A DNA stretch of 64,000 bases from a virus (taxonomy: Duplodnaviria; Caudoviricetes). Made by a program: the position numbers and the translations under genes. Below are positions 15,440 through 33,882 of the stretch, in pieces (position 1 is the first letter of the stretch; the number at the start of each line of letters is the position of its first letter). The stretch lies in IMG/VR virus record IMGVR_UViG_3300037422_000298. One strand, written 5' to 3'. A model generated the notes under the pieces. That model ran no database searches and was not told where the DNA came from. It worked only from the letters and a program-made list of their open reading frames with translations.

Positions 15440-16189
15440 TCACACAACCGTCCTCTTGATGAGGCCGTACTTGTACAGCTTCACGTCGGCGAAGTTCAGC
15501 GCGGTTGCACCGTCGCTGGCCGCCTGAGCGATGCGGCAGGGGGCTTCGGGCTGGAAGATGCCCTTGTAGCCGAGGTTCTCGCGCTCGTGCACGGGGAGCA
15601 CGAGAGCGACGCGATCACGCGGGCTCGGGACGCCGTTCTGCGCGAGTTCGAACGCCGTGTTCGTGGAGAACACCCAGTAGCCGTGGCCCTGGGGGTAGTC
15701 CTGTAGGACGCCCTGCGTGTAGAACTTGGCGTTGTACTCGTACTGGAAGAACGTGACGCGGTCCATCTGGAACAGCGTCACCAGGCTCGGCGGATCCGAG
15801 AGCGCGAACGGCGCGATCGGCGCGCCCGCACCCGGGATGACCGTCGAGAAGTTGTCCGCGAGGGTCGGACGATCTGGCGAGGTGTCCGGCGCGCGCATCA
15901 CGCGCGTGACCATGATGCCCCAGCCGTAGACGAGCATCTCCCAGTCCTTCGGCAGACCAGAGTCGCCGTTGCGGGGGATGTTGGTGTCGACGCGCGTCTG
16001 CACGCGCTGACCGCCGGGGATCGGCTGGCTGCGACCCGAGCTGTACGCTTCGAGCGGCGTGGTGAGCCCGTTCTGGAACTGGACCGAGCCGTACAGCTTG
16101 TCGTCGATCCAGTCCGCGAGGGCGATGGTGCTGCCGTCGGGCAGCGTGAGGGTGGTGGTTGATGGCGCTACGCCAACTGCTCCGGCCAT
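15440..16189 (-). CDS. candidate single-jelly-roll major capsid protein
   Basis: 249 aa, extreme codon bias, strong terminator; DTNI...G.LP...MLVYG, NGVPSPR...LVLPV and terminal LYKYGLIKRTVV resemble my recollection of SJR capsid proteins of tail-less viruses. Confidence 0.55.
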   Translation of the reverse strand: MAGAVGVAPSTTTLTLPDGSTIALADWIDDKLYGSVQFQNGLTTPLEAYSSGRSQPIPGGQRVQTRVDTNIPRNGDSGLPKDWEMLVYGWGIMVTRVMRAPDTSPDRPTLADNFSTVIPGAGAPIAPFALSDPPSLVTLFQMDRVTFFQYEYNAKFYTQGVLQDYPQGHGYWVFSTNTAFELAQNGVPSPRDRVALVLPVHERENLGYKGIFQPEAPCRIAQAASDGATALNFADVKLYKYGLIKRTVV

Positions 16190-16377
16190 GGTCTCTTGTC
16201 CTTGTCGAGAGTGAACGGCTCAACGCCGTCTGGATGGTCGCGCCGAGGATTCGGCGTGAACCGGTGATCGCCGACCAGCGATCGTCGAAGCGATTCAATC
16301 GCGCGAGCGACTCAATCGCTTCAGCGACTCTGGGCGCTAGTTGCCGCCTCCGTTGCGGTTATCGGCCCGCACGCTGT

Positions 16378-17166
16378 TCAGTTCCCTCCGCCGCCGAAGA
16401 GCGTTGCACCGAAGTGCATGCCCATCGACGAGAGCGCCGGACCGCCGAGGATCTTGGTCTGCTGGACAGCCGGGTTGTCGTTCATGCCGTAGTCACCGGC
16501 ACCGACGAGAGTCGGCGGGCCGACCAGCTCGGGTCGAGCAGCACCGAAGCCGCCACCGTTCTGGATCGAACCCGGCACCGGGAAGGCCGGTTCGATCGCA
16601 ACGGCACCGAAGCCGTTCTGCATCGCCGGGAGGTTTGCCGGGACGACATAGCCCGGTTCGATCGTGGCGATGCCGAAGCCGTTACCGGCACCCGGCTGGA
16701 TCACCGCCGTCGGATCGATCACGACGCCGTTCCAACCGAACGTGCCCGGCTGTGCGGGAACCGTCGGCGTCACCGTCGGCGTCACCGTCGGGGTCACCGT
16801 CGGGGTCGCGGCAGCAGGCTTGAACAGCGACTGCTCCAGCTGACGCATGCCGTTGGTCACGAACGCGGTCGCGATCGCGGCGAGGCCCATGCGGCGCGTT
16901 CCGGGGAATGCCATCATGACGCCGCCTGCGATTCCGCCTGCGAGCAAGCCCGTCAGTTCGCTGAACTGGTGGAGCTTCGATGTCGGCTGTGTCATCGCAC
17001 GAGCGATGATCGCGGCGCCGGTACCGACACCACCGCCGATGACCGCGCCCCACATGGAGTCGCCGCCCGCTGGCTCGCCGAACTCGTCGAGACCGAACAT
17101 GTCGACCTCGCCGACGTCGGAGAAGCCGTCGGTGTCACCCAGATTGCCAAACGTGTCTTGCTTCAT
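16378..17166 (-). CDS. FG-rich membrane protein, putative inner-membrane virion protein
   Basis: MKQDTFG...; Gly-rich hydrophobic segments; about nine xFG motifs; (TPTV)n linker. Confidence 0.65.
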   Translation of the reverse strand: MKQDTFGNLGDTDGFSDVGEVDMFGLDEFGEPAGGDSMWGAVIGGGVGTGAAIIARAMTQPTSKLHQFSELTGLLAGGIAGGVMMAFPGTRRMGLAAIATAFVTNGMRQLEQSLFKPAAATPTVTPTVTPTVTPTVPAQPGTFGWNGVVIDPTAVIQPGAGNGFGIATIEPGYVVPANLPAMQNGFGAVAIEPAFPVPGSIQNGGGFGAARPELVGPPTLVGAGDYGMNDNPAVQQTKILGGPALSSMGMHFGATLFGGGGN

Positions 17167-17195
17167 GACTATCGACCTCTCTTTTGTCGTTTTGT

Positions 17196-17450
17196 TCAGC
17201 GCCGCGTCGGGCAGCGCGAAGACCCTTCTTGGAATTCCCACCCGGTGCGGCTCTTCTTGCCGTTTCGGGTACGCGTACCGACGCCGACGTAGCAGAGCTG
17301 CATCGAGCATCCCGTGCGCGGGTTCTTGACCGTCTTGCAGTCGCCGACGGCTGCGACAGCACCAAGTGCCTTGCGAGCGTGCTTGGGCTTTTTCGCCTTC
17401 GCCTTCTTCGTCGGCGTGTCGGTGCCATCGATGGTGAATACGCTCGGCAT
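17196..17450 (-). CDS. small Lys/Arg-rich Cys-containing protein
   Basis: MPSVFTIDG...KKAKAKKPKHARKALG...; start overlaps upstream stop. Confidence 0.55.
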   Translation of the reverse strand: MPSVFTIDGTDTPTKKAKAKKPKHARKALGAVAAVGDCKTVKNPRTGCSMQLCYVGVGTRTRNGKKSRTGWEFQEGSSRCPTRR

Positions 17451-18349
17451 CAGCGCCTCTGCTCCGGGCGAACGGCAATGGAGTTCATTGCCTGCATCGG
17501 GAACACCGATTCCGGCGTCGGCCACCGCTTCATGACCATTGGCGGACGCGTATCGAGCGGAACGCGCGCTTGGCGTTGAGCGTCGTGGATCGGAACGCGC
17601 GTCGCCTGGTTCATTTGCGCGATCGAGTTCGGCATGAACCGGTGCGCGATCGACGCTTGGAAGTTGCGCCGCGCCCACACGTTGTCGTCGTAGTTGAGCT
17701 TGCGGTAGTAGAACCCGTAGTCGAGGTACGGGTACTGCGGCACGTGACCAGGCCGTACTTGATGCGGCAACACTTCGTTGGCGAGCAACGGAATGCCGAA
17801 GCCGCTCTTTTTCTGCTGATCGACCGTCATCGGCGTCTCGCGTACTTGGACTTCGGTCGGTTTTCCGGTGGCCGCAATCGGGGCCGGTCCTGGCATTGCT
17901 GGAGCAGGAGGCGCGACAGTCACGCTGGGCTCACCGCCGGGGCCGTTGCAGACGATCACGCGACGAATGCCGATTTGGATCGCAACAGGTGAACCCTTGG
18001 CGAGCTGTTGCGCGGCTGCGGTGATCGTACCGACGACACCGCCGCCGGGCGGTGTATTGGGCGCGACGCGGATCTTCGACGTACCCATGCAGATCACGGC
18101 AGCCTGGCCGCGGCGGAACTGCTGCGCGACCTTGCCCGCTGCGTAGGCGATGTCCTCGGGTGCGGGATATGGCGAGACCGCCGGTCCAGCGCCGCGAACG
18201 CTGGCGATGAACGGATCGATCGTGTGCGTCGCCATGTCGACGGGTGACAGCTGACGGATCCACATCGGCTCGATCACGCTGGTCCGCGTGATGGCGTCGG
18301 GACGCCAGTGCATCGAGACGTGTTCGCTACGCGTCCACGGGACCATCAT
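17450..18349 (-). CDS. Pro-rich putative virion protein
   Basis: Palindrome + TACGTT + 6 nt + ATG; KSGFG motif. Confidence 0.6.
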   Translation of the reverse strand: MMVPWTRSEHVSMHWRPDAITRTSVIEPMWIRQLSPVDMATHTIDPFIASVRGAGPAVSPYPAPEDIAYAAGKVAQQFRRGQAAVICMGTSKIRVAPNTPPGGGVVGTITAAAQQLAKGSPVAIQIGIRRVIVCNGPGGEPSVTVAPPAPAMPGPAPIAATGKPTEVQVRETPMTVDQQKKSGFGIPLLANEVLPHQVRPGHVPQYPYLDYGFYYRKLNYDDNVWARRNFQASIAHRFMPNSIAQMNQATRVPIHDAQRQARVPLDTRPPMVMKRWPTPESVFPMQAMNSIAVRPEQRR

Positions 18350-18505
18350 GCAAACAACGTAGTCGATCGCTCGCGCGACTGCAATACAAAGCACAACGAT
18401 TTCACTGAGTTAGCCTGCAAATCGCTGCGCATCGCTGATCACTTCTGATCACGTTGGCGCCTTGATCGCGCGAGCGACTGCGCGTACGTTGCTAGGTGAG
18501 AAGAG

Positions 18506-18730
18506 ATGGCAAGACGTCGACGTCCACGTGCGTTGGGAGACATTGCAGTTCCGCAAACAGTTGAACGGCCAGTGACTCCGCGCGAGCTTGCACACTTTCT
18601 GAAGGTCAGCCCTGCGACGATCCGTCGACGTCTTGGCGAGCTACCGCATTTTCGCATCGGCAACCGGGTTCGGTTCATGCCGAGCGCGGTGCTCGCGCAC
18701 TACGCCAAGAAGACGAACGGCAGCGACTGA
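18506..18730 (+). CDS. HTH DNA-binding protein (excisionase/HTH_17-like)
   Basis: VTPRELAHFLKVSPATIRR...LPHFRIGNRVRF. Confidence 0.8.
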   Translation: MARRRRPRALGDIAVPQTVERPVTPRELAHFLKVSPATIRRRLGELPHFRIGNRVRFMPSAVLAHYAKKTNGSD

Positions 18731-19032
18731 TGCTGACTGCTACGCACTACAGAAGGCGTCCGCAACTCGGGCAGTCGATCGAGCCAAGCGTTACTGTTCC
18801 GACGGAAGTAGCCACAGCTATCGACAAGCTGACTGCAGCAGCAAACACGCTCGTCGCGGCCGTCTCGAACTTCAAGCTCAAGATCGAACATGACGTGATC
18901 TTGCCGCCGCCGAGTGACACCGTCGCGCGTTTGCTGCCCGTTGCGCTCACGCTCGCGATCTTCATGACCGGTGCGGTGATGTTGACGAAGAAAGTTCTGA
19001 CCGCAGATCCGGGACCGGTACGCAGTCGTTAG
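18730..19032 (+). CDS. small membrane protein
   Basis: MLTATHY...LGQ leader; C-terminal TM LLPVALTLAIFMTGAVML. Confidence 0.55.
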   Translation: MLTATHYRRRPQLGQSIEPSVTVPTEVATAIDKLTAAANTLVAAVSNFKLKIEHDVILPPPSDTVARLLPVALTLAIFMTGAVMLTKKVLTADPGPVRSR

Positions 19033-19361
19033 TCTGCAATCGCGTCGATGCGACGAAGAATGCCTTCGAGGTCTTCGATCGTCGTTAGCAGATCCAAGTA
19101 GTCGTCACCGTCGATCCGTGCACCGCTACTATCAGCCAGTGCTGCCGCGTAGCGCAGCTCGCCGAGCGTGCGACGGAGATTGCGGTATGAGAAGTCGCTC
19201 GACATCAGCCGGTAACAGGGACTGTTCTGTCCGCCGTGCCAGTCACTGCAGATCTCGACGGCGCTCGCGAGGTCGCCGTCCCACACGTGCACGACTTTCC
19301 CTGTGCGCGTGTTCTCGTAGACGACGTAGCCGTTTTCGTCTTGGTAGTAGCGAATCGGCAT
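19029..19361 (-). CDS. hypothetical protein
   Basis: 110 aa ORF, DWHGGQNS motif. Confidence 0.55.
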   Translation of the reverse strand: MPIRYYQDENGYVVYENTRTGKVVHVWDGDLASAVEICSDWHGGQNSPCYRLMSSDFSYRNLRRTLGELRYAAALADSSGARIDGDDYLDLLTTIEDLEGILRRIDAIAD

Positions 19362-19364
19362 TAC

Positions 19365-19676
19365 TCACCGACGACGACGTCGACGCGGGCTGGTGATTGT
19401 ACAGCGGGCTCGAAACGCATCCGAGGCGTGACTGTACCGTCGAAACTGTTCTGAATCGAACGCTGCACCACGCTGATCGGCGCCAATCTCTTCCGCTTCG
19501 AGCACGCCCATCCAGTACGCAAGCGCGCTGAACTTGTCGAACGCCGTTCTGCACTGACCGGCGCGAGCCGTCGCGATGGTTTGCCGCGATAGATTCTTCA
19601 CGGCGAGGTTCGCCGTCTTCATGCGCGTGACATGATCTTCTGCAGGCGAAGCGAAGTTGCGGCGGCGACGCTTCAT
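19365..19676 (-). CDS. small basic protein
   Basis: Starts MKRRRR, ends PRRRRRR. Confidence 0.55.
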   Translation of the reverse strand: MKRRRRNFASPAEDHVTRMKTANLAVKNLSRQTIATARAGQCRTAFDKFSALAYWMGVLEAEEIGADQRGAAFDSEQFRRYSHASDAFRARCTITSPRRRRRR

Positions 19677-19686
19677 CGAAGCGCCT

Positions 19687-20391
19687 TTAGCGGCGGCAGA
19701 GTCGAACTGCTGTGCGCTGACTACGCGTTGCACGTCGGACGAGCGCGCGCGCTTGCTGCACGAGGCTGTCTTCCATCGCTTGCTCACCTTGGACCGTTGC
19801 GACGGTGCCTTCGGCGATCGCATCGGTGTAGTGCTCGATCGAACCACAGCGGTTGCGCTTCGAGATGCGATCGGCCGTCTTGAGGATGTTCGACGCCGAA
19901 CGGTACCAGCCGCGCGACTCCTCAGCGTGCTCCTGTGGAGCCAGGCCGAGACCGCCGCGCCGAGCGCCCTTGACGACGGAGCCGACGACGACTGCGCCGA
20001 CGACCGTGCCGCCGATCGCGACCCACATCATCGGATTCTTGACGTCGAAGAACTTCTTCTTGATACCCGATGCTGTTGCTTGCTGCGGGAACTCCTTGGC
20101 GAGCGTGTCGATGTCGGCTTGCGGAAGACCCGCGGTACACGACGCGAACGAACCGGCGCCACGAAGACAGATGCGCGCGCTGTCGATGGTAGGCGCGGTC
20201 GTGAGTAGAGCCTCGACATCGGACTTCGCCGCTTGGTCGGGAAACTCTGTGCGAAGCTGATCGATATCGGGCTGAGGCAGTCCAGCTGTGCACGACGCGA
20301 ACGAACCGGCGCCGCGGATGCAGATACGCGCGCTGTCGATCGTCGGCGCTGGAATTTGCCCGAACCCGGTCGTGTAGTGGCTGATCAACAT
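19687..20391 (-). CDS. membrane-anchored virion protein family A
   Basis: MLISHYTTGFGQ leader; two ~41-aa Cys-pair repeats; KKFFDVKNPMMW+TM. Confidence 0.7.
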   Translation of the reverse strand: MLISHYTTGFGQIPAPTIDSARICIRGAGSFASCTAGLPQPDIDQLRTEFPDQAAKSDVEALLTTAPTIDSARICLRGAGSFASCTAGLPQADIDTLAKEFPQQATASGIKKKFFDVKNPMMWVAIGGTVVGAVVVGSVVKGARRGGLGLAPQEHAEESRGWYRSASNILKTADRISKRNRCGSIEHYTDAIAEGTVATVQGEQAMEDSLVQQARALVRRATRSQRTAVRLCRR

Positions 20392-20439
20392 AGGCTGACC
20401 CTATCATCGATCGCGTGCGCGATCGACCGTGTCGATTGG

Positions 20440-21447
20440 CTAACGGCGCGCACGTCGCCGACGTCGGCGTCCAACTGTGGCAGCGGGTGCGGCTGCAGCT
20501 GCAGGTGCCGCTGCTGCCGGTGCTGCGGCAGCGGCACCCGCCGCTCCACCTTTCACGAGTGCGCCAATGACGACGACACCGAGAATGCCGCCGCCGATCG
20601 CGACCCACATGACTGGGTTGTTGACGCGGAAGAACTTCTTCTTTTTGGCAGCCTCGGCGACAACTTTCTTGGCGGCCTCTTTCCCGGCGGCCTTCTGCTC
20701 GGGAACCGACTTGCCTTCTGCTTTGGCGACCGCGACAGCATTGTTGGCCGCGATGGCAGCGTCGCGCGCGACAGCAGGATCCTTGAGCAGCGAATCGTCG
20801 ACATCCTTGATGACGTCGTTGTCACGTTGAACTTCGGTGAGCGCTTCTTGAACGACCTCTTTGTTGTCGGGAGCGACGACTTCATCCAAGATCGTCGAGG
20901 CGCACCTGTGCGACGGATCGTCCCAAACGGTGCCGAATGGACAAACGCAGATGCCGCTGGTGTCGAGCGCCGCACCCGTCGATGGATCGATGTTCTGCCC
21001 CGTTGCGCATGCGACTGATGGCGGTTGCGGGACAGGCGTGGACGGCCCCGACTGTGTGAAGAACGCCTTGATCTTGTCGATGACGCTGTCTTCCTGCGCG
21101 GGTTGAGCTGGCGCGCCGCCAGTCAGAGCAATTGTTTCAGCAAGGGCTGTCGAGAGCGCGATGACAGTGTCTGCGTCGAACGCGAGCCCTTCTGCGGTCA
21201 GCTGACCGGTTGCGGCGCGGTTTAGGACAGGATTGACCTTTTGTCCGTTCTCTAACAGAAGATCGATCGCGCGGCGCGCAGCGATTGGAAGTTGCCCCAT
21301 CGTTTCGCTCGTCAACTGACCGTTGACGGTAACGTGGCTTAGTGGATCAGCGATGAACGCGTTGATGTTCTTCTGCAGAAGTGAAACCGTCTCGGCGGTC
21401 GGCGTGCTGAACTGCCCGAACGGCTGCACGTAGCTGATGCTCAACAT
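20440..21447 (-). CDS. membrane-anchored virion protein family A
   Basis: MLSISYVQPFGQ leader; KKFFRVNNPVMW+TM; poly-Arg tail. Confidence 0.7.
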   Translation of the reverse strand: MLSISYVQPFGQFSTPTAETVSLLQKNINAFIADPLSHVTVNGQLTSETMGQLPIAARRAIDLLLENGQKVNPVLNRAATGQLTAEGLAFDADTVIALSTALAETIALTGGAPAQPAQEDSVIDKIKAFFTQSGPSTPVPQPPSVACATGQNIDPSTGAALDTSGICVCPFGTVWDDPSHRCASTILDEVVAPDNKEVVQEALTEVQRDNDVIKDVDDSLLKDPAVARDAAIAANNAVAVAKAEGKSVPEQKAAGKEAAKKVVAEAAKKKKFFRVNNPVMWVAIGGGILGVVVIGALVKGGAAGAAAAAPAAAAPAAAAAPAATVGRRRRRRARR

Positions 21448-21489
21448 GCCACGACCCTATCACCGATCGCGTGCGCGATCGAGTTACGC

Positions 21490-21888: not shown

Positions 21889-21893
21889 GATTT

Positions 21894-22199: not shown

Positions 22200-22200
22200 G

Positions 22201-22389
22201 TCACTTCCTTCTGCGCTTCGCGCGACGACCTGCAACGGTCGAGCGTGTACGTGGAATGATCTGCAGGTAACGCTCGCGGCGTGCATAGCGCTTCGCGGCT
22301 TTCTTCGTCTTGAAGCACGTCACGAGCCGCGCAGGTGTCTGACCCGGCGGGACGGTGTACACACAGAATTCTTTCTTGGCTTGCGGCAT
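22201..22389 (-). CDS. small basic protein
   Basis: MPQAKKEFC..., ends VAGRRAKRRRK. Confidence 0.5.
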   Translation of the reverse strand: MPQAKKEFCVYTVPPGQTPARLVTCFKTKKAAKRYARRERYLQIIPRTRSTVAGRRAKRRRK

Positions 22390-23204: not shown

Positions 23205-23208
23205 GCGC

Positions 23209-26839: not shown

Positions 26840-27937
26840 ATGCTGACCACTCAGTTCTATGGACCGTCGAGCGCATCCGGCTTCTACGGTGCTTCCGGTT
26901 TCTACGGAGCACACCTCTCCGGTGCAAGTTTCTACGGCTTCCACGACTACTACAACGCAGGCTTTGGCGCGATCCAATCGACGCCTGCGACGGCCGCGCT
27001 GCAGAAGTACTTGGTGAGCGTCAAGAAGCTCCCGGCCGACAAGGCTACGGGCGTGATGAACGACGCCACGATGGCGGTGATCTTCAATCTGCTGATCCAA
27101 GCCGCCGATACGGTCGCCAAAATCCCACTGCTGCCGCAGGACGTTCGCGACGGCATCAACACAGTCGTCACCGCGCTCAAGGACGCCGACAAGAAGATCC
27201 GAGACGTCACGTTCGGCCAAGCATCACTCTCGACGGTGATCAGTCAGTTCACGAACATCCAGGCGATCGTGCGCCAAGCAGGCAACGCGATCTCGTCGGG
27301 TGCTGGTGACACTGCTGCTGACGCCATGTTGAAGGCACGCGACGCAGTCTACAACGCGGTCGCAGGCAAAGCGGCGCTCATCCAGAAGGCGATCCCGATT
27401 CTCATTCCGGGGCTGAAACCGGCTGCGACGACAGGGTTCACGATTCGGCCAGACATCACAAAGATGATCATCGGGTCGAAGTTTGTCGCGACGACAACCA
27501 AGCCAGCTGCGAGCGCGGTCAAACCCGGCACGATCTACGCGCTCAGCAAGAAGCTCACGAAGGCAGCAGGTGGTCAACCGCGATATCGCATCGCAGTCCC
27601 GCGCGGCGCTGGTTCTGGATTTGGGGGCATCGGCGTCATGGAAGACGGCGTGCTCGGGAGCTGCATCTTCGGTGACTGCGGTCTCGGTCAGGTAGCACCG
27701 CTCGTCGAGAGCACGCCGCCCGGCGGGGCAGTAACACCGCCAGCGACACCTGGTCGATCGGTCACCGAGACCGAGTTGGAGAAGCAGACTGGAACGCTAC
27801 CGTTCTTCAAAAAGCCGCTGTTCTGGGTAGCAGTCGTCGGCGGTGTCGCTGTTGCAGGTGGCGGTTACTACTATGTGCGCCGTCGCAAGAGCGCTGCACC
27901 TGCTGCCGCAGCAGCACCAGCAAAGGCGGCATACTGA
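26840..27937 (+). CDS. membrane-anchored virion protein family B
   Basis: MLTTQFYG with repeated ASGFYG; PGTIYA...YRIAVP; TETELEKQTGTLPFFKKPLFW+TM. Confidence 0.7.
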   Translation: MLTTQFYGPSSASGFYGASGFYGAHLSGASFYGFHDYYNAGFGAIQSTPATAALQKYLVSVKKLPADKATGVMNDATMAVIFNLLIQAADTVAKIPLLPQDVRDGINTVVTALKDADKKIRDVTFGQASLSTVISQFTNIQAIVRQAGNAISSGAGDTAADAMLKARDAVYNAVAGKAALIQKAIPILIPGLKPAATTGFTIRPDITKMIIGSKFVATTTKPAASAVKPGTIYALSKKLTKAAGGQPRYRIAVPRGAGSGFGGIGVMEDGVLGSCIFGDCGLGQVAPLVESTPPGGAVTPPATPGRSVTETELEKQTGTLPFFKKPLFWVAVVGGVAVAGGGYYYVRRRKSAAPAAAAAPAKAAY

Positions 27938-29448
27938 TGCTGGCGCAGATGTTCACACCGGCTACGGTTTCGACGCAGGCACCGTCGACGCCGGGGACGG
28001 TGCCGGGGACGACGCCGCCATCAACGCCCTCAACACCGCCGCCGTCACACGGGTCTGCCTTCACGGCAATGCCAGGTGTGTTCACAAAGCTACCTGCACC
28101 ATCGGCACCGCCAGCGCTCACGTTCGTATGTACGCGCAGTGCGTGCACGAGCACCCACGCAGCAACAGATCTCGCGTTTCGTACGCTGCAGACGCTGATC
28201 AACATGGCCAGCGAGAAGATCGGAAGGTCGGTCTTCGGCGTCAATGTCAGCAGGGTCGTGATTCCCGTCGACGGACGAATCACTGCGGCGACGCTTCAAG
28301 CGTATCTGCCGATCTCGCGCGCTATCGGTGGAAGACTCGCGATCTTCGACTTCACGCCCGATACCAAGTACCTCGCTACGAACGCGCAGATCTTCGCGTA
28401 CGAGATCGCAAAGTACCTCGGCGTCACGTGGGTCGAGAAGACCGCAACGGTCGCAGGTCACTGGGCGCGTCTGCCCGCAGGACAATCGCCCCGGTTGCCG
28501 ACGCTGCCGACGGCATCATCGCGTCCGATGCCACTGCCATTGCCAACACCGGCTACGCCCACGGCGCCACCTCCACTCTGTCCGATGTCGTGGATGATTC
28601 CGACGTCAGCAGGATGTCTCTATCCGATCGGGACGATCGCGACGTACAGCGCGTCACGCGGAAAGTGGCGCATCGCCGTGACGCTCGAAGCGCTCCAGAA
28701 CATTCCCCAGCAGATCATGACGGCGCCTCCTCCACCGCCGCCATCACCGCTGATCACGAGCGCAGCTGGTCGCGCGAGCTTCGGTTGGGCGTTTCACGGC
28801 GCGACACACCAGGCAGTAGCTGAATCGGATCAGCCGCCGCAAGGCGTGCAGCAGGTCGATGAAGTCACGTTTGCTACGGCGGTCGGTGAACCGGTCACGC
28901 AACAGCCCGTGCCGCAGCCGCAACCGCCACAGCCGCAGCCTCCACAAGCGGAGCCGTCACGCGTCGACGTGGGACCGACGACAGTGGGGCCGACGGCACC
29001 TGGACCAACGACGGTCGAACCGACGGTGATCCAGCCGGTGATCCAGCCGGTGATCCAACCAACTGTGCCGAAGCAGCGCTACGCGGGATGCATCGCGCGC
29101 TTCAACAAGACACGCCGCGTGTTCTCGATCTACTGCCCTATCGGTACAGCAACGGCAACGCCGGGTCTCGGTGTTGCAGACGAAGAGGGGTTTCGTTGCC
29201 TCTACGGCAACTGCTACGGGCTCGGCGCCGATCCTGTCACGCCCCCAGTTCCAGCAGGCTTCACCAAGGTCGCCGAAACGACTTCGCTGCCTGGTGCAGG
29301 TGAAACGCCTGCGGGTGAAGAGAAAGACAAGTTCTTCCGTGCGAACAATCCACTCATGTGGTTTTTGTTCGTGGGTACTGCTGCGGCCGTCGGCGGCGGT
29401 AGTTACTGGCTCATTCGTCGACGACGGGCAGCCAAGGCGGCCTGGTAA
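27937..29448 (+). CDS. Pro-rich membrane-anchored virion protein family B
   Basis: Two copies of the Y.GTIA..WRIA module; KFFRANNPLMW+TM+RRRR. Confidence 0.7.
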   Translation: MLAQMFTPATVSTQAPSTPGTVPGTTPPSTPSTPPPSHGSAFTAMPGVFTKLPAPSAPPALTFVCTRSACTSTHAATDLAFRTLQTLINMASEKIGRSVFGVNVSRVVIPVDGRITAATLQAYLPISRAIGGRLAIFDFTPDTKYLATNAQIFAYEIAKYLGVTWVEKTATVAGHWARLPAGQSPRLPTLPTASSRPMPLPLPTPATPTAPPPLCPMSWMIPTSAGCLYPIGTIATYSASRGKWRIAVTLEALQNIPQQIMTAPPPPPPSPLITSAAGRASFGWAFHGATHQAVAESDQPPQGVQQVDEVTFATAVGEPVTQQPVPQPQPPQPQPPQAEPSRVDVGPTTVGPTAPGPTTVEPTVIQPVIQPVIQPTVPKQRYAGCIARFNKTRRVFSIYCPIGTATATPGLGVADEEGFRCLYGNCYGLGADPVTPPVPAGFTKVAETTSLPGAGETPAGEEKDKFFRANNPLMWFLFVGTAAAVGGGSYWLIRRRRAAKAAW

Positions 29449-29472
29449 CACCACAACCAAGGATCGTTGACC

Positions 29473-30261
29473 ATGCTGGCACAGTTCCTTCCACAGCAGC
29501 AGTTCCCGCAACAGCAGTTCCCGCAACAGCAGTTCCCGCAACAGCAGTTCCCGCAACAGCAAGCAACTGCCGCGGGCTCGTATCCACCAGGTACGGTCGT
29601 CGCACGCAGCGCCAAAACCGGACGGTTCCGCGTTGCGATTCCGACGGCGTTGATGTCGCAATATGTGGCGCCGTCGGCGACGATCGCGACGAGCACGACC
29701 ACGCCACCGGGTTTCGATCCACAGCGATTCCCGGCACAGCAGAACATGCAGTTCCCCCAATCGGGGTTCCCACAGCAGCAGTTTCCTCAACCAGGATTTC
29801 CGCAGCAACAGTTCCCGCAACAGCCGTTCCCGCAGCAGCCGTTCCCGCAGCAGCCGCAGTTCCAACCGGGATTCTTTCCTGACGAAGAGGAATTCTTTGG
29901 GCTCGGTCAGACGCCCGGCGTCACGGCGGACTCGACCGAAGTTCCGACGAACGTCTCAACTCCACCCGTCACGACGACAGGAACGGTTGCACCGACCATC
30001 ACCGAAGCGGACTTCGAAAAGAAGACCGGGCAGGTTCCGTTCTTCAAGAAGCCGCTGTTCTGGGTCGTCGTTGCAGGTGTCGCGATCGTCGGTGGCGGGA
30101 TCTGGTTCATGCGGCGCAAGACTGTCGCCGCTGGACTCGGTGGCGCGTGCCCCGAGGGTCAGCTCTGGATCGAATCGCGCGAAACCTGCGTCAACGCCAA
30201 GAAGTACTGGGATGATCCAGAAGGCACACTTCGCAAGCTGGGGCCGCGTCGGAGGCGCTGA
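29473..30261 (+). CDS. membrane-anchored virion protein family B with QQFP repeats
   Basis: (QQQFP)n and QQPFP tracts; YPPGTVVA...FRVAIP; TEADFEKKTGQVPFFKKPLFW+TM. Confidence 0.7.
   Translation: MLAQFLPQQQFPQQQFPQQQFPQQQFPQQQATAAGSYPPGTVVARSAKTGRFRVAIPTALMSQYVAPSATIATSTTTPPGFDPQRFPAQQNMQFPQSGFPQQQFPQPGFPQQQFPQQPFPQQPFPQQPQFQPGFFPDEEEFFGLGQTPGVTADSTEVPTNVSTPPVTTTGTVAPTITEADFEKKTGQVPFFKKPLFWVVVAGVAIVGGGIWFMRRKTVAAGLGGACPEGQLWIESRETCVNAKKYWDDPEGTLRKLGPRRRR
29488..29560 (+). repeat. 15-bp coding tandem repeat (QQQFP)
   Basis: CAGCAGTTCCCGCAA repeated about four times; related tract 29750-29880. Confidence 0.85.
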
Positions 30262-30264
30262 ACC

Positions 30265-30390
30265 GTGGCTGCGATCGAAGAACGTAAGGGCGTGCTGTTG
30301 GGGATCGCTGGTCTCCTCCTCTCGGCAGGCATCATGATCGCGATGGGCTTCCACAAGCCCGTCCGACGACACGCGCGTACGCGGCGCTAA
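30265..30390 (+). CDS. 41-aa single-TM microprotein, not in ORF track
   Basis: GTG..AAIEERKGVLLGIAGLLLSAGIMIAMGFHKPVRRHARTRR* fills the gap. Confidence 0.55.
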   Translation: MAAIEERKGVLLGIAGLLLSAGIMIAMGFHKPVRRHARTRR

Positions 30391-30427
30391 CCTGCGATCG
30401 CGCGCGCGATCGTGATACAGTTACCGC

Positions 30428-31084
30428 GTGTTTCAGGCGTCACGCATGCCGACGTTCGCGACGTCAGTCGGGGTTGCACCGTCGACTACGACGATGCAGC
30501 TTTCTGATGCCTGTGACCCTGTAACGGCGTGCAGTCCTGCGGCGACTGCAATTTGGCGGTCACAGAGAAGCGGCATGCCGATGTTGGTGCCCGCGGCCGT
30601 GCCGCAAGCACCGCCAACGCCGCGACCTGCGCCTGAAGCACTGCCGATGTTCCTACCGGAACCGGAAATCACTCGCGCCCATCCGAGGTTCTATATGCCC
30701 TACGCATCACTCGAAGATCTGCGTTCCGCTGCTGGCCTCGGGATCATCAACGAGTCCGACGCATGGCTGACCGGACGTCCGTACGGCCTGCCGGGGACCG
30801 CCACCGTGCGGTTGATGCAGCGTCCGGGTGGCTATCACAGCCCGAACGGCTACCACTACGACGCCACGATGGTCGGCGGTGGATTCGGCGACGCCGATAC
30901 GCAAGCAATCAACACGACGATGCAGCAGCTCGTCGTCGCGCAGCAAGCACAGCAAGCGCATCTCAAGCGCATCGCGTTCTGGCAGGCCTTGACGGGTGGT
31001 CTCGTCGTCGGCTCGATCGCAGTCGGTACGGTTCTCGGGATCGTCGGCGCTGTTCGTCAGCAGCGTCGTCGTGGAGGTCGGTGA
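30428..31084 (+). CDS. membrane-anchored virion protein with capsid-like N-terminal peptide
   Basis: VGVAPSTTT motif; GGFG; C-terminal TM + RRR; palindrome + TGATACAGT + 6 nt + GTG. Confidence 0.65.
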   Translation: MFQASRMPTFATSVGVAPSTTTMQLSDACDPVTACSPAATAIWRSQRSGMPMLVPAAVPQAPPTPRPAPEALPMFLPEPEITRAHPRFYMPYASLEDLRSAAGLGIINESDAWLTGRPYGLPGTATVRLMQRPGGYHSPNGYHYDATMVGGGFGDADTQAINTTMQQLVVAQQAQQAHLKRIAFWQALTGGLVVGSIAVGTVLGIVGAVRQQRRRGGR

Positions 31085-31536
31085 TGCTCGGTATCTACGT
31101 CAACGAGATGCAACGCAGTGTCGGCTTCGGCAATGCGGGCGGCTACTACCGAACCCGCATCGTTCCGTACAGACACTTCGCGCCGTACCGCCCCGGCGCG
31201 ATCGCCGTCGATCGCCGCACGCACCTCGGTGACGTTCCCAACGACTTCGAAGCATCAGTCGATCTGCAGTACATCCCCGTTCGACAGGGTTGGTACTACG
31301 GGCAGCCGGTCGACGGTCGCGGGTACCCCGACAGGTCCAATGGGTTCGGTCAAGCGCCACCGACGACACCTACGACGTCCACCGAGCTGGATCGCATTGC
31401 GAAGCTCGAACGCACGCAGACGATCCTTCAAATCGTCTCGACGATTTCGATCGCGGCGATTGCATCACTGACGATCGCCAAGGCCGTCGTCTCCGTTCGA
31501 CGCCGTCGATTCGGGCTCACGGCGGAAGAAGATTGA
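31084..31536 (+). CDS. membrane-anchored virion protein
   Basis: MLGIY...VGFGN leader; NGFGQ; TM followed by RRRRFG. Confidence 0.6.
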   Translation: MLGIYVNEMQRSVGFGNAGGYYRTRIVPYRHFAPYRPGAIAVDRRTHLGDVPNDFEASVDLQYIPVRQGWYYGQPVDGRGYPDRSNGFGQAPPTTPTTSTELDRIAKLERTQTILQIVSTISIAAIASLTIAKAVVSVRRRRFGLTAEED

Positions 31537-31541
31537 TCGTT

Positions 31542-31781
31542 ATGCCACGACGTAAGATCAAAGGTCAGTTCTGTGAAAAGACGCTCGCGCCCAAGACGGC
31601 GTTCGACAAGCGGAGCTTTCGCTATAAGAAGTCCGGCAAGAGCTGGCTGCTCGTCGGTTGTCCAACAGGCAAGTGGAACGCGAAGACGAACTACTGTCGT
31701 GTTGGGACACGTGCGCACAAACTTCTCGCGGCTCGCCGCGGTACAAGTTGTCCAACCAACGCCAAGCGCGTCGTGAAATAA
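31542..31781 (+). CDS. small basic Cys-containing protein
   Basis: MPRRKIKGQFC...; Lys/Arg rich. Confidence 0.55.
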   Translation: MPRRKIKGQFCEKTLAPKTAFDKRSFRYKKSGKSWLLVGCPTGKWNAKTNYCRVGTRAHKLLAARRGTSCPTNAKRVVK

Positions 31782-31790
31782 GGAGATCTG

Positions 31791-32324
31791 ATGCTCACCG
31801 TCAACTACAGCGGTTTTGGTACGACTCTCAGTCCTTCGCAGCAGGCCGCGCAGCCGCGATACACGTGCGCCGAGCGAAACACCAAGGGTCGATGCATGAG
31901 GTGGGTCCAGAGAGCATCAGGGTTTGGATGGGGGTTCGGCGCAGCACTCACCGAAGACGAGATCATCAAGCTCGCGCAAGAAGTCTCCGAGAAGGCGAAT
32001 GCAAACGGCGCCGCCGTTCTCGAAGTCACGAACATCTTCCGGCTGATCGATGACCAGGCGAGCCAGGATGCGGTCGCGCTCCGCGCGGCGGGACTCGTCG
32101 CGGCGGTGGCAGGCAAGGCAACCTCGATCCAGGCGAGCCTTGCGGAGGCGCGACTGCTGGGTGCGCCTCCGCCGCTCGTGTCACCGACGGAGCCTGCACC
32201 TGCAACACCCACAACGACGGTGGCAGGTCTCTCGCGTGGTGCGAAGATCGGAATCGGCGTTGCTGCCGCTGGCCTGCTCGCGGTGGGACTGACGCTCGGT
32301 ATCAGTGCAGCGCGGCGTCGGTGA
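31791..32324 (+). CDS. membrane-anchored virion protein family C
   Basis: AGGAG SD; MLTVNYSGFG; LA.EV.EK.N..G.....VTNIFRL domain; TM + RRR. Confidence 0.65.
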   Translation: MLTVNYSGFGTTLSPSQQAAQPRYTCAERNTKGRCMRWVQRASGFGWGFGAALTEDEIIKLAQEVSEKANANGAAVLEVTNIFRLIDDQASQDAVALRAAGLVAAVAGKATSIQASLAEARLLGAPPPLVSPTEPAPATPTTTVAGLSRGAKIGIGVAAAGLLAVGLTLGISAARRR

Positions 32325-32330
32325 TCGTAC

Positions 32331-33068
32331 ATGCTGAGCGTGACCATCACGCGTCCTTGGAACGACACGACGCTGGGTAGAGGCAACTGCGGTTCACGCA
32401 GCTACCCAAACGTCGGTGACAACACGATCCAAGCGATCACGGCGGCGCTTCAGCAGGGCGGTGCGATCATCACAGGCAACAACCCGTGGGATGTCGATAC
32501 GCGTCAGCACGGCGTCAAGTTGCGCGGTACGTGGGACCCTAGTTCTCAAATACTCGTCGTGGAAATCATCGACAGCGCCTTCCTTGCGCCGTGTTCCAGA
32601 GTGGTAAGCGCGGTCGACACCCAACTCAGGCAGGTCATTGCGGCCAATCCATCGCCACAGTCTGGCTTGCCGAGCATCACACTCGCCGCTGATCTCGAAT
32701 CGCTCGCCAACGAAGTTGCAGAAAAGAGCAATCCATCAGGCGTCTCCGAAGTCAACGTCACCAACATTTTTCGGCTCACGCCGAGCGCCGCTGACCGCAA
32801 CGCCATCGCGCTGCGAGCGATAGCAATCGTAAGTGGGGTGTCGGCGGGGAAAGTTGCTTCGATTCAAGCGAGCTTGGCAGAAGCTAACGAGCTGAGTCCC
32901 ATAACGACCGACGAGCCTATATTGCCCTCGACGCCAGAAGCCGTCGTTGAACCGACAGCCTCTGGCATGTCGCTTGGCGCCAAGGTTGGTATCGGCGCCG
33001 CGATCGCGGGTGCGTTGGTGCTCACGGCTTTGGTGATTCGCCGCGCTGTTGGTACGATGCGGCCGTGA
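32331..33068 (+). CDS. membrane-anchored virion protein family C
   Basis: Shares VTNIFRL...A(V/I)ALRA...SIQASLAEA domain and GAK.GIG TM with 31791..32324. Confidence 0.65.
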   Translation: MLSVTITRPWNDTTLGRGNCGSRSYPNVGDNTIQAITAALQQGGAIITGNNPWDVDTRQHGVKLRGTWDPSSQILVVEIIDSAFLAPCSRVVSAVDTQLRQVIAANPSPQSGLPSITLAADLESLANEVAEKSNPSGVSEVNVTNIFRLTPSAADRNAIALRAIAIVSGVSAGKVASIQASLAEANELSPITTDEPILPSTPEAVVEPTASGMSLGAKVGIGAAIAGALVLTALVIRRAVGTMRP

Positions 33069-33514
33069 GGCCTACGCTCCGCAGTCCGCCGATTGATGTA
33101 TCTCTCGTCGCGCCGAATCTGTTTGTCGGCGCGCGGCCACCACCAGGGCGTTATCGTTGGGTCGGCGTGATCGTGTTGTGTGCCCGTGAGTATCAACTGC
33201 CGAGCTACGCCTTTCCGGGCGTCACCGTTTTGCACGTACCGCTCGATGATGATTCAACACGCCCGATGCATCACCACGAGATCGTCCTTGCAACGTCAAA
33301 CGCGCGTACAATGGCGCGGTATCTACATGCAGGGCATCGCGTGCTGTCGACGTGCCACATGGGCCTCAATCGCTCCGCGCTCGTGGCAGGACTCGCGATG
33401 CGGCAAGCCTTCGGCATGTCTCCAACAGACGTGATCGAGCAGATCCGTAGTCAGCGTGGACCGCGGGCGCTATCGAATCCACGCTTTCGGCAACTCATTC
33501 ATCGATTCGCGTGA
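33065..33514 (+). CDS. dual-specificity protein phosphatase
   Basis: PNLFVG, HVPLDD, VLSTCHMGLNRS (Cx5R), LSNPRF. Confidence 0.85.
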   Translation: MRPTLRSPPIDVSLVAPNLFVGARPPPGRYRWVGVIVLCAREYQLPSYAFPGVTVLHVPLDDDSTRPMHHHEIVLATSNARTMARYLHAGHRVLSTCHMGLNRSALVAGLAMRQAFGMSPTDVIEQIRSQRGPRALSNPRFRQLIHRFA

Positions 33515-33882
33515 CGTGCGCGGCGGCGGCGTACCGCAAGTGCGAGCTGTTGACGTGCGGCAAGCGCGTGGTGACGGCGCGCCGCGAAACTTCCACGCGA
33601 ACGTGAACGCTTGGAACCTCGCGAGCGTCGCCACTTCGTGCCGCGTCGGCCGCGCTCGAACACCGTGTACGAGATCAAGAACATCGATACCAGTGTCGAG
33701 CTGAGCAACGAAGCTGTGATCAATCGCTTGTCGCGAACGCCTGCGATCGCCAGACCGGGCATGATCAGCGCGGATCGCAGCAGCCAGTGTCCGAGGAACT
33801 TCGGGAAGGCTCCCGGCTCGCCGTCGAGCACGCCGCAGACAGAAGCCGAAGAAGGGGCGGTGGGACAAGTACTCGACGCCAC
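33499..33882 (-). CDS. small membrane protein with Arg-rich tail
   Basis: Two hydrophobic segments; palindrome + TGGTACGTT + 6 nt + GTG. Confidence 0.55.
   Translation of the reverse strand: MASSTCPTAPSSASVCGVLDGEPGAFPKFLGHWLLRSALIMPGLAIAGVRDKRLITASLLSSTLVSMFLISYTVFERGRRGTKWRRSRGSKRSRSRGSFAARRHHALAARQQLALAVRRRRARHANR

Follow-up and report, generated by a model that had tools for sequence, protein, structure and literature searches.

The window, by which is meant the whole stretch of 64,000 nucleotides that was analyzed, is part of a larger genome. Its closest complete relative, G001, has a size of 221 kb, is syntenic with the window and encodes a candidate capsid protein 97% identical to that of the window. 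Five related genomes from IMG/VR (85–221 kb) were examined, of which four are at least 90% complete and two are closed by terminal repeats (138 kb and, in the case of G005, 85.6 kb). A prophage copy of one relative was found inside a Gemmatimonadota chromosome, and integrase, seen in the relatives along with terminal repeats, is encoded by a core gene of the lineage. Viral marks within the window are represented by genes of endolysins (GH25 and PG_binding) and Endonuclease VII; homing endonucleases are also encoded, and tailspike proteins and own replication genes were found in the relatives. The genomic context named in the original prediction, namely tRNAs, dcd, glycosylation genes and a Ubl system, was recovered as seven tRNAs and genes for dCTP deaminase, ThiF, JAB and two glycosyltransferases, to which a vWA protein gene is added.

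Table 1. Features of the region 15440–33882 and of two genes outside it
Position	Strand	Feature	Evidence
10553–12958	−	Fibre-like protein, 801 aa; outside 15440–33882	phrog_5906 on C-terminal part; palindrome 12975–12990
15440–16189	−	Candidate major capsid protein, single jelly roll, 249 aa	AF2 model, structural matches
16378–17166	−	Capsid-gene neighbour; Gly-zipper hydrophobic segments, (TVTP)n linker, Gly/Pro-rich C-terminal part	Conservation
17450–18349	−	Pro-rich protein, conservation limited to the ~200 kb clade	52–64% identity in L002, L003, L013, L017; 39% in L001
18730–19032	+	Small protein with ML start and C-terminal hydrophobic helix	54% identity in G001
19687–20391	−	Paralogue 1 of the 'MLxxxYxxxFGQ ... 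KKFFxxxNPxMW-TM' family	Sequence; palindrome 20409–20424 just upstream
20440–21447	−	Paralogue 2; ML..FGQ leader, C-terminal membrane helix, R6 tail	Palindrome 21465–21480 just upstream
21490–21888	−	Paralogue 3; ML..FGQ leader, C-terminal membrane helix, Arg tail	Sequence, hydropathy
22404–23204	−	Transglutaminase-like (papain-fold) Cys-His-Asp enzyme, N-terminal membrane helix	Pfam Transglut_core; palindrome 23251–23266
23860–24852	+	Membrane protein with ML start; helix from residue ~226, then C-terminal phrog_336 domain	Palindrome 23830–23845
24859–26775	+	Tail-anchored protein, 638 aa; MIL start, TM then HRRRL	35–51% identity in L002, L003, L013, L017
26840–27937	+	Tail-anchored protein, 365 aa; ML start	Palindrome 26805–26820
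27937–29448	+	Pro-rich protein, 503 aa; MLAQMF start, hydrophobic C-terminal stretch, RRRR tail	61–66% identity in L003, L013, L017
29473–30261	+	Tail-anchored protein; QQFPQ repeats, ML start	Sequence, hydropathy
30428–31084	+	Tail-anchored protein with copy of the capsid N-terminal arm, VGVAPSTTTMQL	GTG start; palindrome 30396–30411 directly before
31084–31536	+	Tail-anchored protein, 150 aa; ML start, RRRR after helix	Hydropathy
31791–32324	+	Tail-anchored protein, 177 aa; MLTVNYSGFG leader, ARRR end	Hydropathy
32331–33068	+	Tail-anchored protein, 245 aa; paralogue of 31791–32324	Sequence, hydropathy
33065–33514	+	Dual-specificity-phosphatase-like protein; CX5R motif (CHMGLNRS)	DSPc, 24.9 bits (curated cut-off 33.5)
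34209–36734	−	Core coiled-coil protein, 841 aa; outside 15440–33882	Conservation; palindrome 36755–36770

The ORF at 15440–16189, strongly biased in its codon usage (GC3 0.90), is a genuine gene and, at 62–97% identity, shows the highest conservation in the lineage. It is present as one copy per genome, and between genomes its product is 62–75% identical where DNA polymerase is only 37–58% identical. More than 400 metagenomic homologues with 60–97% identity were found, most of them on short contigs. The AlphaFold2 model of the protein, based on an alignment of 44 sequences, consists of one jelly roll (pLDDT 87, pTM 0.83). The best structural match was SPV1 6oj0_A (Z 9.1, 144 aa, rmsd 4.1), followed by HHIV-2 (Z 8.0), P23-77 VP16/VP17 (Z 7.6) and SH1 (Z 7.5), a Z of 8–9 being the upper edge of the range that unrelated models attain with this aligner. 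In the Foldseek search, all ranks down to 49 were occupied by viral capsid proteins, none of them significant. Among the weaker fold matches were jelly-roll cement proteins of tailed phages (KHP40, Z 6.3; Pam1, Z 5.4), and PHM, GOLD and CBM jelly rolls were also present among the structural matches. The fold prediction accordingly agrees with the single jelly roll originally proposed, and its neighbours include, besides SPV1, the shell proteins of P23-77, SH1 and HHIV-2. A second major capsid protein, sought as a further copy in the genomes of the lineage, was not detectable by sequence.

The model with three copies of the protein reached an ipSAE of 0.85, with 0.00 for the best control; the mark of the three-copy model was attained by 20 of 30 proteins with structures solved as pairs of one chain, versus 1 of 23 solved as single chains. 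Contacts in the three-copy runs agreed by at least 77%, partner pLDDT was at least 83, and the interface was head to tail. The capsid candidate is thus modelled as self-associating head to tail, and its role as the shell protein is inferred.

Residues 5–15 of the capsid protein form an N-terminal arm, VGVAPSTTTLTL, which recurs in the product of 30428–31084 in the window and in the corresponding second protein of G001, G003, G005 and 13 other loci. Across these 17 genomes and loci the two copies of the arm co-vary: STT/STT, GTST/GTIT, GTTT/GTTT, GTYT/GTYT and GSYT/GSYT. The arm-bearing protein is a candidate tether of the capsid to the membrane.

Of 17 related loci, 15 have the gene 16378–17166 adjoining that of the capsid protein, and it is also present in G001, G003 and G005; its ORF is open to 17478, and the start was set at residue 49 of the initial gene call after the Atlas record. 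Neither its product nor the Pro-rich protein 17450–18349 matched any Pfam or PHROG family. Small basic proteins, which had been listed among the structural genes, were not upheld: the ORF 18439–18678 (−) is the shadow of a conserved plus-strand gene of 52 aa, the L001 homologue of which belongs to HTH_17, and the ORFs 19365–19847 (−) and 21894–22286 (−) are unconserved even in the genome closest to the window, where tblastn found no match to either.

A simple hydropathy scan of the region 15440–33882 showed 17 ORFs with a hydrophobic helix, compared with the approximately 15 TM-anchored proteins noted originally. The helix is mostly C-terminal and followed by an Arg/Lys tail; 12 of the 17 ORFs start with 'ML' or 'MIL', and in most of these 12 the C-terminus is formed by a membrane helix plus Arg tail. 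Among the 88 genes of the window, 17 encode tail-anchored proteins, ten of them with the ML start (Fisher p = 2e-5), and the same association was found in G001 (p = 1.5e-6). Arg tails that come to lie across the membrane make for an unusual topology, which was counted against the main reading presented below.

Two enzymes of the region were retained. The product of 22404–23204 matches Transglut_core above the cut-off (E 2.9e-5, 24.7 bits; cut-off 23), with residues Cys192, His225 and Asp244 invariant in five sequences. Its gene is a core gene, found in 15 of 17 related loci, and its sole match among 50,697 phage records was gp34 of SSIP-1, annotated as a structural protein (E 5e-6). It is a candidate virion maturation protease. 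The phosphatase 33065–33514 is backed by its CX5R motif and by its conservation in G001 (65%) and G003 (40%), its DSPc match lying under the curated cut-off.

Two large proteins are encoded outside the region. In the protein 34209–36734, a globular N-terminal domain leads into a P/Q/G-rich region and an E/R/Q coiled coil, after which comes a further domain at the C-terminus; its homologues measure 880 aa in G001, 711 aa in G003 and 699 aa in G005. No match to it was found in Pfam or PHROG; it is the only non-replication protein larger than 340 aa in the gene set shared by these three genomes and is a candidate scaffold or size-determining protein. The protein 10553–12958 contains repeat units 'GSVLFA..AQDNA.LFWDD..N.LGIGT', has related proteins in seven loci and may form a vertex or receptor-binding fibre. 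Receptor-binding proteins of the fibre and tailspike kind are encoded both in the window and in the relatives. The palindrome GATCGC-N4-GCGATC is present in 19 perfect copies versus 0.94 expected, and its copies lie directly upstream of the genes for membrane proteins, the protease, the coiled-coil protein, the fibre and an amidase, as well as of the lysis cassette.

Recognizable head and tail genes of tailed phages had been reported as missing, and the searches concur. In the window, approximately 50 ORFs, including all of at least 229 aa, gave no Pfam match to terminase, portal, HK97 capsid, sheath, tube or tape-measure families (20 of these ORFs were also scanned against PHROGs). In the five relatives, no match at E ≤ 1 was found to Terminase_6N, TerL_ATPase, Terminase_6C, Terminase_3, TerL_nuclease, Phage_portal, SPP1_portal or Phage_capsid, while control genomes were detected in the same searches. 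The 100 largest proteins of the closed genome G005 matched a total of 41 Pfam and 73 PHROG families, and the best 25 family matches per library were free of head and packaging families. Terminase, portal and HK97 capsid protein are accordingly absent at the level of Pfam and PHROG profiles and of BLAST-based core analysis. A packaging ATPase of the FtsK/HerA (A32-like) type, also looked for, is absent from the shared gene set and from the vicinity of the capsid gene: Pox_A32 had no match in the five relatives, the FtsK search gave a P-loop match only, and HerA/DUF87 ATPase is encoded only in the ~200 kb relatives G001 and G002, so that a motor is possible in the window's own clade.

Taken together, the stretch 15440–33882 likely contains the particle-building genes of an undescribed group of bacterial viruses with genomes of 85–221 kb, a group that, as known here from its genes, seems to build a jelly-roll shell over a lipid membrane. 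The observation behind the original prediction is partly confirmed and its interpretation supported, all by computational evidence. The jelly roll and the lack of tailed-phage hallmarks speak for a complex membrane-containing virus with a single-jelly-roll shell; two points depart from the original picture, as a second capsid-protein copy was not detectable by sequence and, without an FtsK/A32-type ATPase in the shared gene set, this is not a module of the sphaerolipovirus (P23-77/SH1) type.

We assign a probability of about 0.6 to the reading of the region as the late virion-building module of a temperate dsDNA bacterial virus assembled as follows. The shell would be made of the one small jelly-roll protein, and the lipid membrane beneath it would be studded with some 15 proteins encoded by the virus, each anchored through a single C-terminal helix, with their large N-terminal parts filling the gap between membrane and shell. 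The protein 30428–31084 may plug into the lattice via its shell-type arm and so tie shell to membrane. It is conceivable that the Arg-rich tails face the DNA and aid its condensation, and that the protease cuts off the short 'ML...(F/L)G' leaders, by analogy with maturation by the adenovirus protease. As the shared gene set includes no packaging motor, the genome is probably not pumped into an empty shell but, as in SPV1, becomes enclosed while shell and membrane form around the condensed DNA. The shared palindrome, given its enrichment and positions, may switch on the module together with the fibre, coiled-coil and lysis genes.

It is unlikely, in our estimate, that the genomes belong to a very divergent tailed phage, the HK97 capsid, portal and terminase of which escape Pfam, PHROG and BLAST, with the jelly roll serving in large numbers as cement or decoration and the 841-aa coiled coil acting as tape measure. 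Cement proteins do occur among the fold matches, the confident homo-oligomer model would equally suit a trimeric cement protein, fibre, tailspike and 'tail protein' PHROG matches were found in the relatives, and Atlas clusters of the same shape are mostly labelled Uroviricota. But terminase and portal are normally the best-conserved phage genes, and here all eight hallmark families went unmatched in five genomes by searches that detected the controls, while three genomes with jelly rolls 62–75% identical share no other large non-replication protein save the coiled coil. The latter, moreover, is highly charged, unlike typical tape measures, and we know of no parallel among tailed phages to an arm shared with a membrane protein or to some 15 tail-anchored proteins.

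An enveloped or pleomorphic particle without a closed protein shell, in which the jelly roll is a matrix, spike or lectin-like part on a membrane vesicle, appears rather improbable. The many membrane proteins, the shared set devoid of packaging ATPase, the lack of a recognised penton protein and the commonness of the fold in lectins and spikes (as in the PHM, GOLD and CBM matches) are consistent with it, but the best fold matches come from the shells of icosahedral viruses with a membrane, and the head-to-tail interface, very high conservation and codon bias suit a lattice-forming protein. Genomes of pleomorphic prokaryotic viruses reach approximately 7–16 kb, far below the 85–221 kb of this lineage. 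A non-viral origin, as a large integrative element or secreted-vesicle system with a cellular role for the jelly roll, would accommodate the copy in the Gemmatimonadota chromosome and the core integrase; it is, however, very improbable, as the window encodes fibre proteins, homing endonucleases and endolysins that bear peptidoglycan-binding domains, the relatives have tailspikes and replication genes of their own and include IMG/VR genomes of three different sizes with closure by terminal repeats, and the capsid gene lies on more than 400 mostly short metagenomic contigs.

Compared with known systems, the lineage resembles Caudoviricetes in its large genome, tRNAs, family A DNA polymerase, endolysins, fibre/tailspike-type receptor-binding domains and a 781-aa vWA protein (phrog_2426, in 490 cultured-phage records), but differs in that terminase, portal and HK97 capsid protein are undetectable in the five relatives. 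With the viruses of the Sphaerolipoviridae type (P23-77, IN93, SH1, HHIV-2 and HCIV-1) it shares single-jelly-roll shell proteins (Z 6.0–8.0) and, as proposed, the internal membrane; those viruses, however, carry a pair of neighbouring capsid genes next to an FtsK/HerA-type packaging ATPase in genomes of 16–31 kb, whereas here one capsid gene is detectable and the ATPase is neither beside it nor in the shared gene set.

SSIP-1 is a tail-less virus that combines an internal membrane with T=49 and a genome of 44 kb (PMC6260650, PMC6356626). In a table of prokaryotic viruses it is listed with two capsid proteins, a possible single jelly roll and the largest genome of all (PMC6260650). It likewise has a bacterial host, and its gp34 shares the Cys-His-Asp triad and membrane helix with 22404–23204; no further gene is shared by sequence, and the capsid profile found no match there. 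Its predicted packaging ATPase gp40 (PMC4124505) has no homologue in the present lineage, and its genome is 2–5 times smaller. SPV1 (Portogloboviridae), the shell chain of which is the best structural match (Z 9.1 over 144 of 178 residues), has a single-jelly-roll shell and, beneath it, an internal membrane, the space between the two being occupied by an array of sub-capsomer proteins, and its nine ORFs with assigned function include no packaging ATPase (PMC8459092). It also codes for a glycosyltransferase and many membrane proteins. The two show no sequence similarity, and counterparts of the VP10-like penton and VP1-like nucleoprotein were not identified here. SPV1 is a non-lytic virus of an archaeal host with a circular 20 kb genome and no own replication genes, whereas the present lineage is bacterial, with genomes of 85–221 kb that encode their own DNA polymerase, helicases, integrase, tRNAs and lysis genes.

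The candidate capsid gene, whose codon bias is the strongest of the window (GC3 0.90; about 61% G+C, seven tRNA genes and dense coding overall), encodes a protein of 249 aa that was assigned to no family in searches of Pfam and PHROG. No match was obtained by tblastn against 50,697 phage records, and the profile of its alignment found nothing below E 0.1 among PDB sequences. The AlphaFold2 model, for which an alignment of 44 sequences was required (folding of the single sequence was unusable, pLDDT 31), is all-beta, with pLDDT 87 and pTM 0.83, and consists of one eight-stranded barrel, i.e., a single jelly roll, as the original prediction had proposed. Foldseek comparison of the model with PDB and BFVD gave no match at E ≤ 0.001; all rows to rank 49 are viral capsid proteins, none of them significant. 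In the exhaustive comparison the best match was to capsid chains of SPV1 (Z 8.6-9.1, 144 of 178 residues, rmsd 4.1), followed by HHIV-2 (Z 8.0), P23-77 VP16-VP17 (Z 7.6), SH1 (Z 7.5) and HCIV-1 (Z 7.3), values that reach the upper limit of the background range given for the aligner. All these chains belong to the shells of icosahedral viruses that enclose a membrane, and each is a single jelly roll; jelly-roll cement proteins of tailed phages are also present among the fold matches (KHP40, Z 6.3). Because the Z values lie at this limit and cement proteins are matched as well, the jelly-roll fold can be considered established at the level of the model, and a role in the shell cannot.

Modeled in three copies, the capsid protein reached an ipSAE of 0.85, with 0.00 for the best control, in a run that differs from the calibration in the alignment used (its own) and in the number of copies (three); of the calibration proteins, 20 of 30 solved as one-chain pairs reached the mark, as did 1 of 23 solved as single chains. 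Agreement between runs covers at least 77% of contacts, the partner has a pLDDT of 83 or above, and the predicted interface is head-to-tail, as would be expected of a repeating capsomer or lattice. Homologues of the protein numbered 436 at E ≤ 0.001 among metagenomic proteins, with 62-90% identity among the 120 listed, and the gene is also present on IMG/VR virus contigs of 39-221 kb. The profile found exactly one copy per genome in the genomes studied. A metagenomic contig of 64,414 bp codes for three different homologues (P0030, P0044 and P0067; 67-73% identical to the query). Metatranscriptome contigs from four runs of three studies, 80-97% alike, cover 15440-16229, and none lies over 14902-15437; since the runs were picked using the capsid gene, only contigs were available and DNA carry-over is possible, they are not counted as expression of the gene. 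Two earlier claims on this region were abandoned: the capsid gene is not recognizably bounded by terminators, as the scan of 15000-34500 for sigma-70 promoters and terminators gave fewer sites than shuffled sequence, and none of the three small basic proteins is retained as a gene, each being either a shadow ORF or unconserved.

Five related IMG/VR genomes were used for comparison. Three were taken in full: G005 (85.65 kb, closed, with a 90-bp terminal repeat), G003 (137.9 kb, closed, with a 123-bp repeat) and the closest complete relative, G001 (221.4 kb, CheckV completeness 100%). Synteny with the window extends over 29-85 kb of G001, where nucleotide identity is about 78%, and the two capsid proteins are 97% identical. 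Six-frame family searches covered these three genomes, as well as G002 (196 kb) and G004 (121 kb), and control genomes were positive. The terminase families Terminase_6N, TerL_ATPase, Terminase_6C, Terminase_3 and TerL_nuclease and the portal families Phage_portal and SPP1_portal were detected in none of the five genomes at E ≤ 1. The same applies to Pfam Phage_capsid, with the restriction that HK97 proteins often escape sequence searches. Terminase families had no match among the window ORFs scanned with Pfam and PHROG. The original prediction named terminase, portal and HK97 capsid genes elsewhere on the contig as evidence against a tail-less virus; in the profile searches, the five relatives gave no match to them at E ≤ 1. 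The strongest matches of the 100 largest proteins of G005 are to replication, nucleotide-metabolism, integrase, methylase, endolysin, pilin-like and tailspike families, with no head or packaging families among them.

The gene set common to G001, G003 and G005 includes PolA fused to UDG, SNF2 helicase, a 550-aa P-loop protein, AAA_24 and PD-(D/E)XK nuclease; tyrosine integrase, Dam methylase, glycosyltransferase and thioredoxin; the capsid protein and the Gly-zipper protein encoded next to it, together with the transglutaminase-like enzyme and the coiled-coil protein; and a few small proteins, a fibre and the lysis genes. The coiled-coil protein is the sole non-replication protein longer than 340 aa in this set, which contains no conserved protein of portal size. 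Identity among the three genomes is 62-75% for the jelly-roll protein and only 37-58% for the polymerase. At such distances BLAST would reveal a terminase or portal if one were present, and none is common to the three, which provides a second, independent argument against a tailed phage. The coiled-coil protein was also considered as a size ruler, an idea that is weak. It measures 699 aa in the 85.6 kb genome, 711 aa in the 138 kb genome, 880 aa in the 221 kb genome and 841 aa in the window; these four values, of which the first two hardly differ, are too few to establish a trend.

Coordinates of the features discussed, in the window and in related genomes
Feature	Sequence	Coordinates	Strand	Length
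vWA-like protein	window	6892-9237	-	781 aa
Fibre	window	10553-12958	-	
Homing-type endonucleases, HNH_3-like and Endonuclease VII	window	14542-15333; 23209-23766	-; -	
Candidate capsid protein	window	15440-16189	-	249 aa
Gly-zipper protein	window	16378-17166	-	
Transglutaminase-like protein	window	22404-23204		
Tail-anchored protein with QQFPQ repeats	window	29473-30261	+	
Tail-anchored protein with capsid-like arm	window	30428-31084		
Coiled-coil protein	window	34209-36734	-	841 aa
DDE_Tnp_1 transposase fragment	window	55397-55990	-	
Perfect palindrome, example sites	window	20409-20424; 23830-23845; 30396-30411; 36755-36770		
HerA/DUF87 ATPase	G001	189878-191599 (L039 9878-11599)		573 aa
HerA/DUF87 ATPase	G002	11757-12092		
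Homing-type endonucleases	G001	73796-75364; 85543-86532		
Core protein	G005	70195-71208		337 aa
Protein with N_methyl motif	G005 (L018)	11864-12916		350 aa
Release-factor-like protein	L001, 232 kb ENA contig	18226-18894		

Search for a packaging ATPase of the FtsK/HerA (A32-like) type, whose presence the original prediction had left to be checked, revealed none in the shared gene set. Pox_A32 had no match at E ≤ 1 in the five related genomes, and FtsK_SpoIIIE matched only the P-loop of the AAA_24/Sak4 recombination protein. A HerA/DUF87 ATPase (E 5e-12) is encoded in G001 and G002, both of the window's clade, and is absent from G003, G004 and G005. Its gene is located about 115 kb from the capsid gene and adjoins the genes of DNA polymerase and ribonucleotide reductase; the nearest solved relatives are bacterial HerA proteins, and the partner NurA was looked for and not detected. 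With no copy in G003-G005 and with bacterial HerA as its nearest relatives, this ATPase is not supported as the packaging enzyme of the lineage.

The hydropathy scan of 15440-33882 revealed 17 ORFs with a hydrophobic helix, mostly C-terminal and followed by RRR to RRRRRR. Twelve of them have an ML or MIL start, in many cases of the form MLxxxYxxx(F/L)G, and no classical signal peptide was found in the tail-anchored proteins. The ML start is strongly associated with the tail anchor in the window (10/17 versus 16/88, p = 2e-5) and in G001 (15/47 versus 32/340, p = 1.5e-6), and more weakly in G003 and G005 (p = 0.02). One tail-anchored protein contains long gliadin-like QQFPQ repeats, and paralogues near it have Pro/Thr-rich linkers, e.g., (TVTP)n. 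The Gly-zipper protein resembles a membrane protein; its Atlas model is poor, and look-up in the Atlas yielded nothing beyond unnamed viral clusters and weak shapes of membrane proteins. [quoted passage not shown] Residues Cys192, His225 and Asp244 are invariant across the two.

The N-terminus of the capsid protein, MAGAVGVAPSTTTLTL, has a counterpart in one tail-anchored protein, which bears VGVAPSTTTMQL close to its N-terminus. Such pairing also occurs in 13 further loci and in G001, G003 and G005, and changes in one copy are accompanied by changes in the other. The capsid and partner arms are APSTTT and APSTTT or APATTT in the window's clade, APGTST and APGTIT in the clade of G003, APGTYT and SPGTYT in G005, and APGSYT and SPGSYT in locus L016; in six loci both are APGTTT, and two other loci pair APGTTT with APATTT or APSTTT. 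Shared descent explains part of this co-variation. At least three joint changes nevertheless argue that both peptides answer to one partner, which could be a lattice pocket, a chaperone or a protease. The simplest reading of the arm on the membrane protein is a tether from shell to membrane.

The palindrome GATCGC-N4-GCGATC occurs in the window in 19 perfect copies (2585-62710), with 0.94 expected, and most copies stand just before late genes. Copies are located directly upstream of 19687-20391, 20440-21447, the transglutaminase-like gene, and the genes at 23860, 26840, 30428 and 33882, as well as upstream of the genes for the coiled-coil protein (36734), fibre (12958) and amidase (14160) and of the lysis cassette (39030). 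No perfect copy is present within 200 nt upstream of the capsid gene. Each arm of the palindrome holds a Dam site (GATC), and the core genes of the lineage include a Dam methylase, which suggests methylation-sensitive control of late genes.

A closed chromosome of a Gemmatimonadota MAG, found with the single capsid protein as query, contains an integrated copy with syntenic neighbors and a capsid protein 72% identical. Endolysins with peptidoglycan-binding domains fit a bacterial host. Related DNA was found in freshwater and soil runs; the window probably comes from a freshwater metagenome run, and about 29% of the sampled words occur in the runs of a single soil study. Several further genes were annotated. 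The vWA-like protein is matched by phrog_2426 along its whole length (E 1e-175) and is encoded in G001 and G003 but not in G005; homologues of about 34% identity occur in 490 records of cultured phages, those of Klebsiella, Salmonella, Serratia (phiMAM1) and Aeromonas among them. Homing-type endonucleases are encoded beside or inside the structural module, HNH_3-like and Endonuclease VII in the window and LAGLIDADG in G001, where the LAGLIDADG gene adjoins a core gene apparently split into pieces of 49 and 99 aa. The window also contains a fragment of a DDE_Tnp_1 transposase (E 7e-14). Near the capsid gene of L001 are genes for a release-factor-like protein with PCRF and RF-1 domains, a protein with a cREC_REC domain and glycosyltransferases. 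A protein of G005 carries the type IV pilin N_methyl motif at residues 185-211 (E 1e-10) and has a weak homologue in G001.

The region is best read as the late virion module of a tail-less, membrane-containing virus with a jelly-roll capsid protein (probability about 0.6), i.e., a known architecture with a very unusual genome size and no evident motor. The observed and modeled components of this reading are the highly conserved, self-associating jelly-roll protein; the co-regulated set of tail-anchored proteins; the membrane-bound Cys-His-Asp enzyme common with a membrane phage; the co-varying arm; and the failure to detect tailed-phage hallmarks or a shared packaging ATPase. A wider proposal is tentative and rather doubtful: a new high-rank 'jumbo' tail-less lineage with genomes up to at least 221 kb, a jelly-roll shell over an internal membrane, no DNA-packaging motor, DNA that about 15 tail-anchored proteins condense with their poly-Arg tails and around which membrane and shell assemble, an arm-mimic tether and a papain-like membrane-bound maturation enzyme. 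Under the main reading, the tail-anchored proteins would sit in the internal membrane, with Arg tails reaching the DNA and bodies lying beneath the shell. The arm-bearing protein would link shell to membrane, and the ML..(F/L)G leaders would be cut off by the transglutaminase-like enzyme, much as proteases of adenovirus, poxvirus and ASFV cut after Gly-containing motifs. The genome would be enclosed as the particle assembles and not pumped in, as in SPV1 (PMC8459092).

Among phages, large genomes are regarded as confined to tailed types, whose packaging is driven by terminase. The prokaryotic viruses in culture that lack a tail and contain a membrane have genomes of about 10-44 kb (PMC6260650). 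A lineage of 85-221 kb genomes that has a small shell protein of the jelly-roll type and shares no packaging motor would break this size limit, the question would arise how so much DNA is enclosed, and the architecture of a few extremophile viruses (SPV1, P23-77, SH1 and SSIP-1) would extend to common freshwater and soil bacteria. The lineage is not rare, with more than 400 distinct capsid-protein homologues in public metagenomes, and marker-based pipelines place such genomes among tailed phages by default (Atlas taxa). No description of this virus group was found in the literature, the coverage of which was incomplete, so its novelty is unproven.

Among known systems, Caudoviricetes are characterized by the large terminase subunit and portal, which were not found in the five relatives. 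The double-jelly-roll proteins of viruses of the PRD1, PM2 and Bam35 type align to the one-barrel capsid model over one barrel only, with Z below 7. The likeness to the P23-77/SH1 type (Sphaerolipoviridae) assumed in the original prediction holds for the single-jelly-roll capsid protein, as a likeness of fold with no sequence similarity, but is not apparent in gene organization. That type has two adjacent capsid genes and, beside them, a packaging ATPase of the FtsK/HerA type, whereas here one capsid copy per genome was found by a profile that would miss a second jelly roll unrelated in sequence, its neighbor is membrane-protein-like and no adjoining ATPase was found. Since this block of an ATPase and two capsid genes was not found, the lineage is judged not to be a member of the P23-77/SH1 group.

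SSIP-1 is a tail-less phage about 100 nm in size that contains an internal membrane; it has T=49 and a genome of 44 kb, and it is listed as a possible single-jelly-roll virus (PMC6260650, PMC6356626). Only the transglutaminase-like gp34 is common to it and this lineage by sequence; its capsid proteins and gp40, the predicted packaging ATPase (PMC4124505), have no detectable sequence homologue here. The shell protein of SPV1 (Portogloboviridae) is the best fold match, although its Z of 9.1 is near the ceiling of the aligner's background. SPV1 infects archaea, and its circular genome, about 20 kb long, contains no replication genes, whereas the genomes considered here are 85-221 kb in size, contain PolA, helicases and integrase, and show signs of a bacterial host. 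Judged by genes alone, the tail-anchored proteins and the lack of a shared ATPase are consistent with the membrane and motor-free nucleoprotein core of SPV1. According to these tests, the module does not match the double-jelly-roll type or, as far as terminase and portal are concerned, the tailed-phage type, and would work most like those of SPV1 and SSIP-1.
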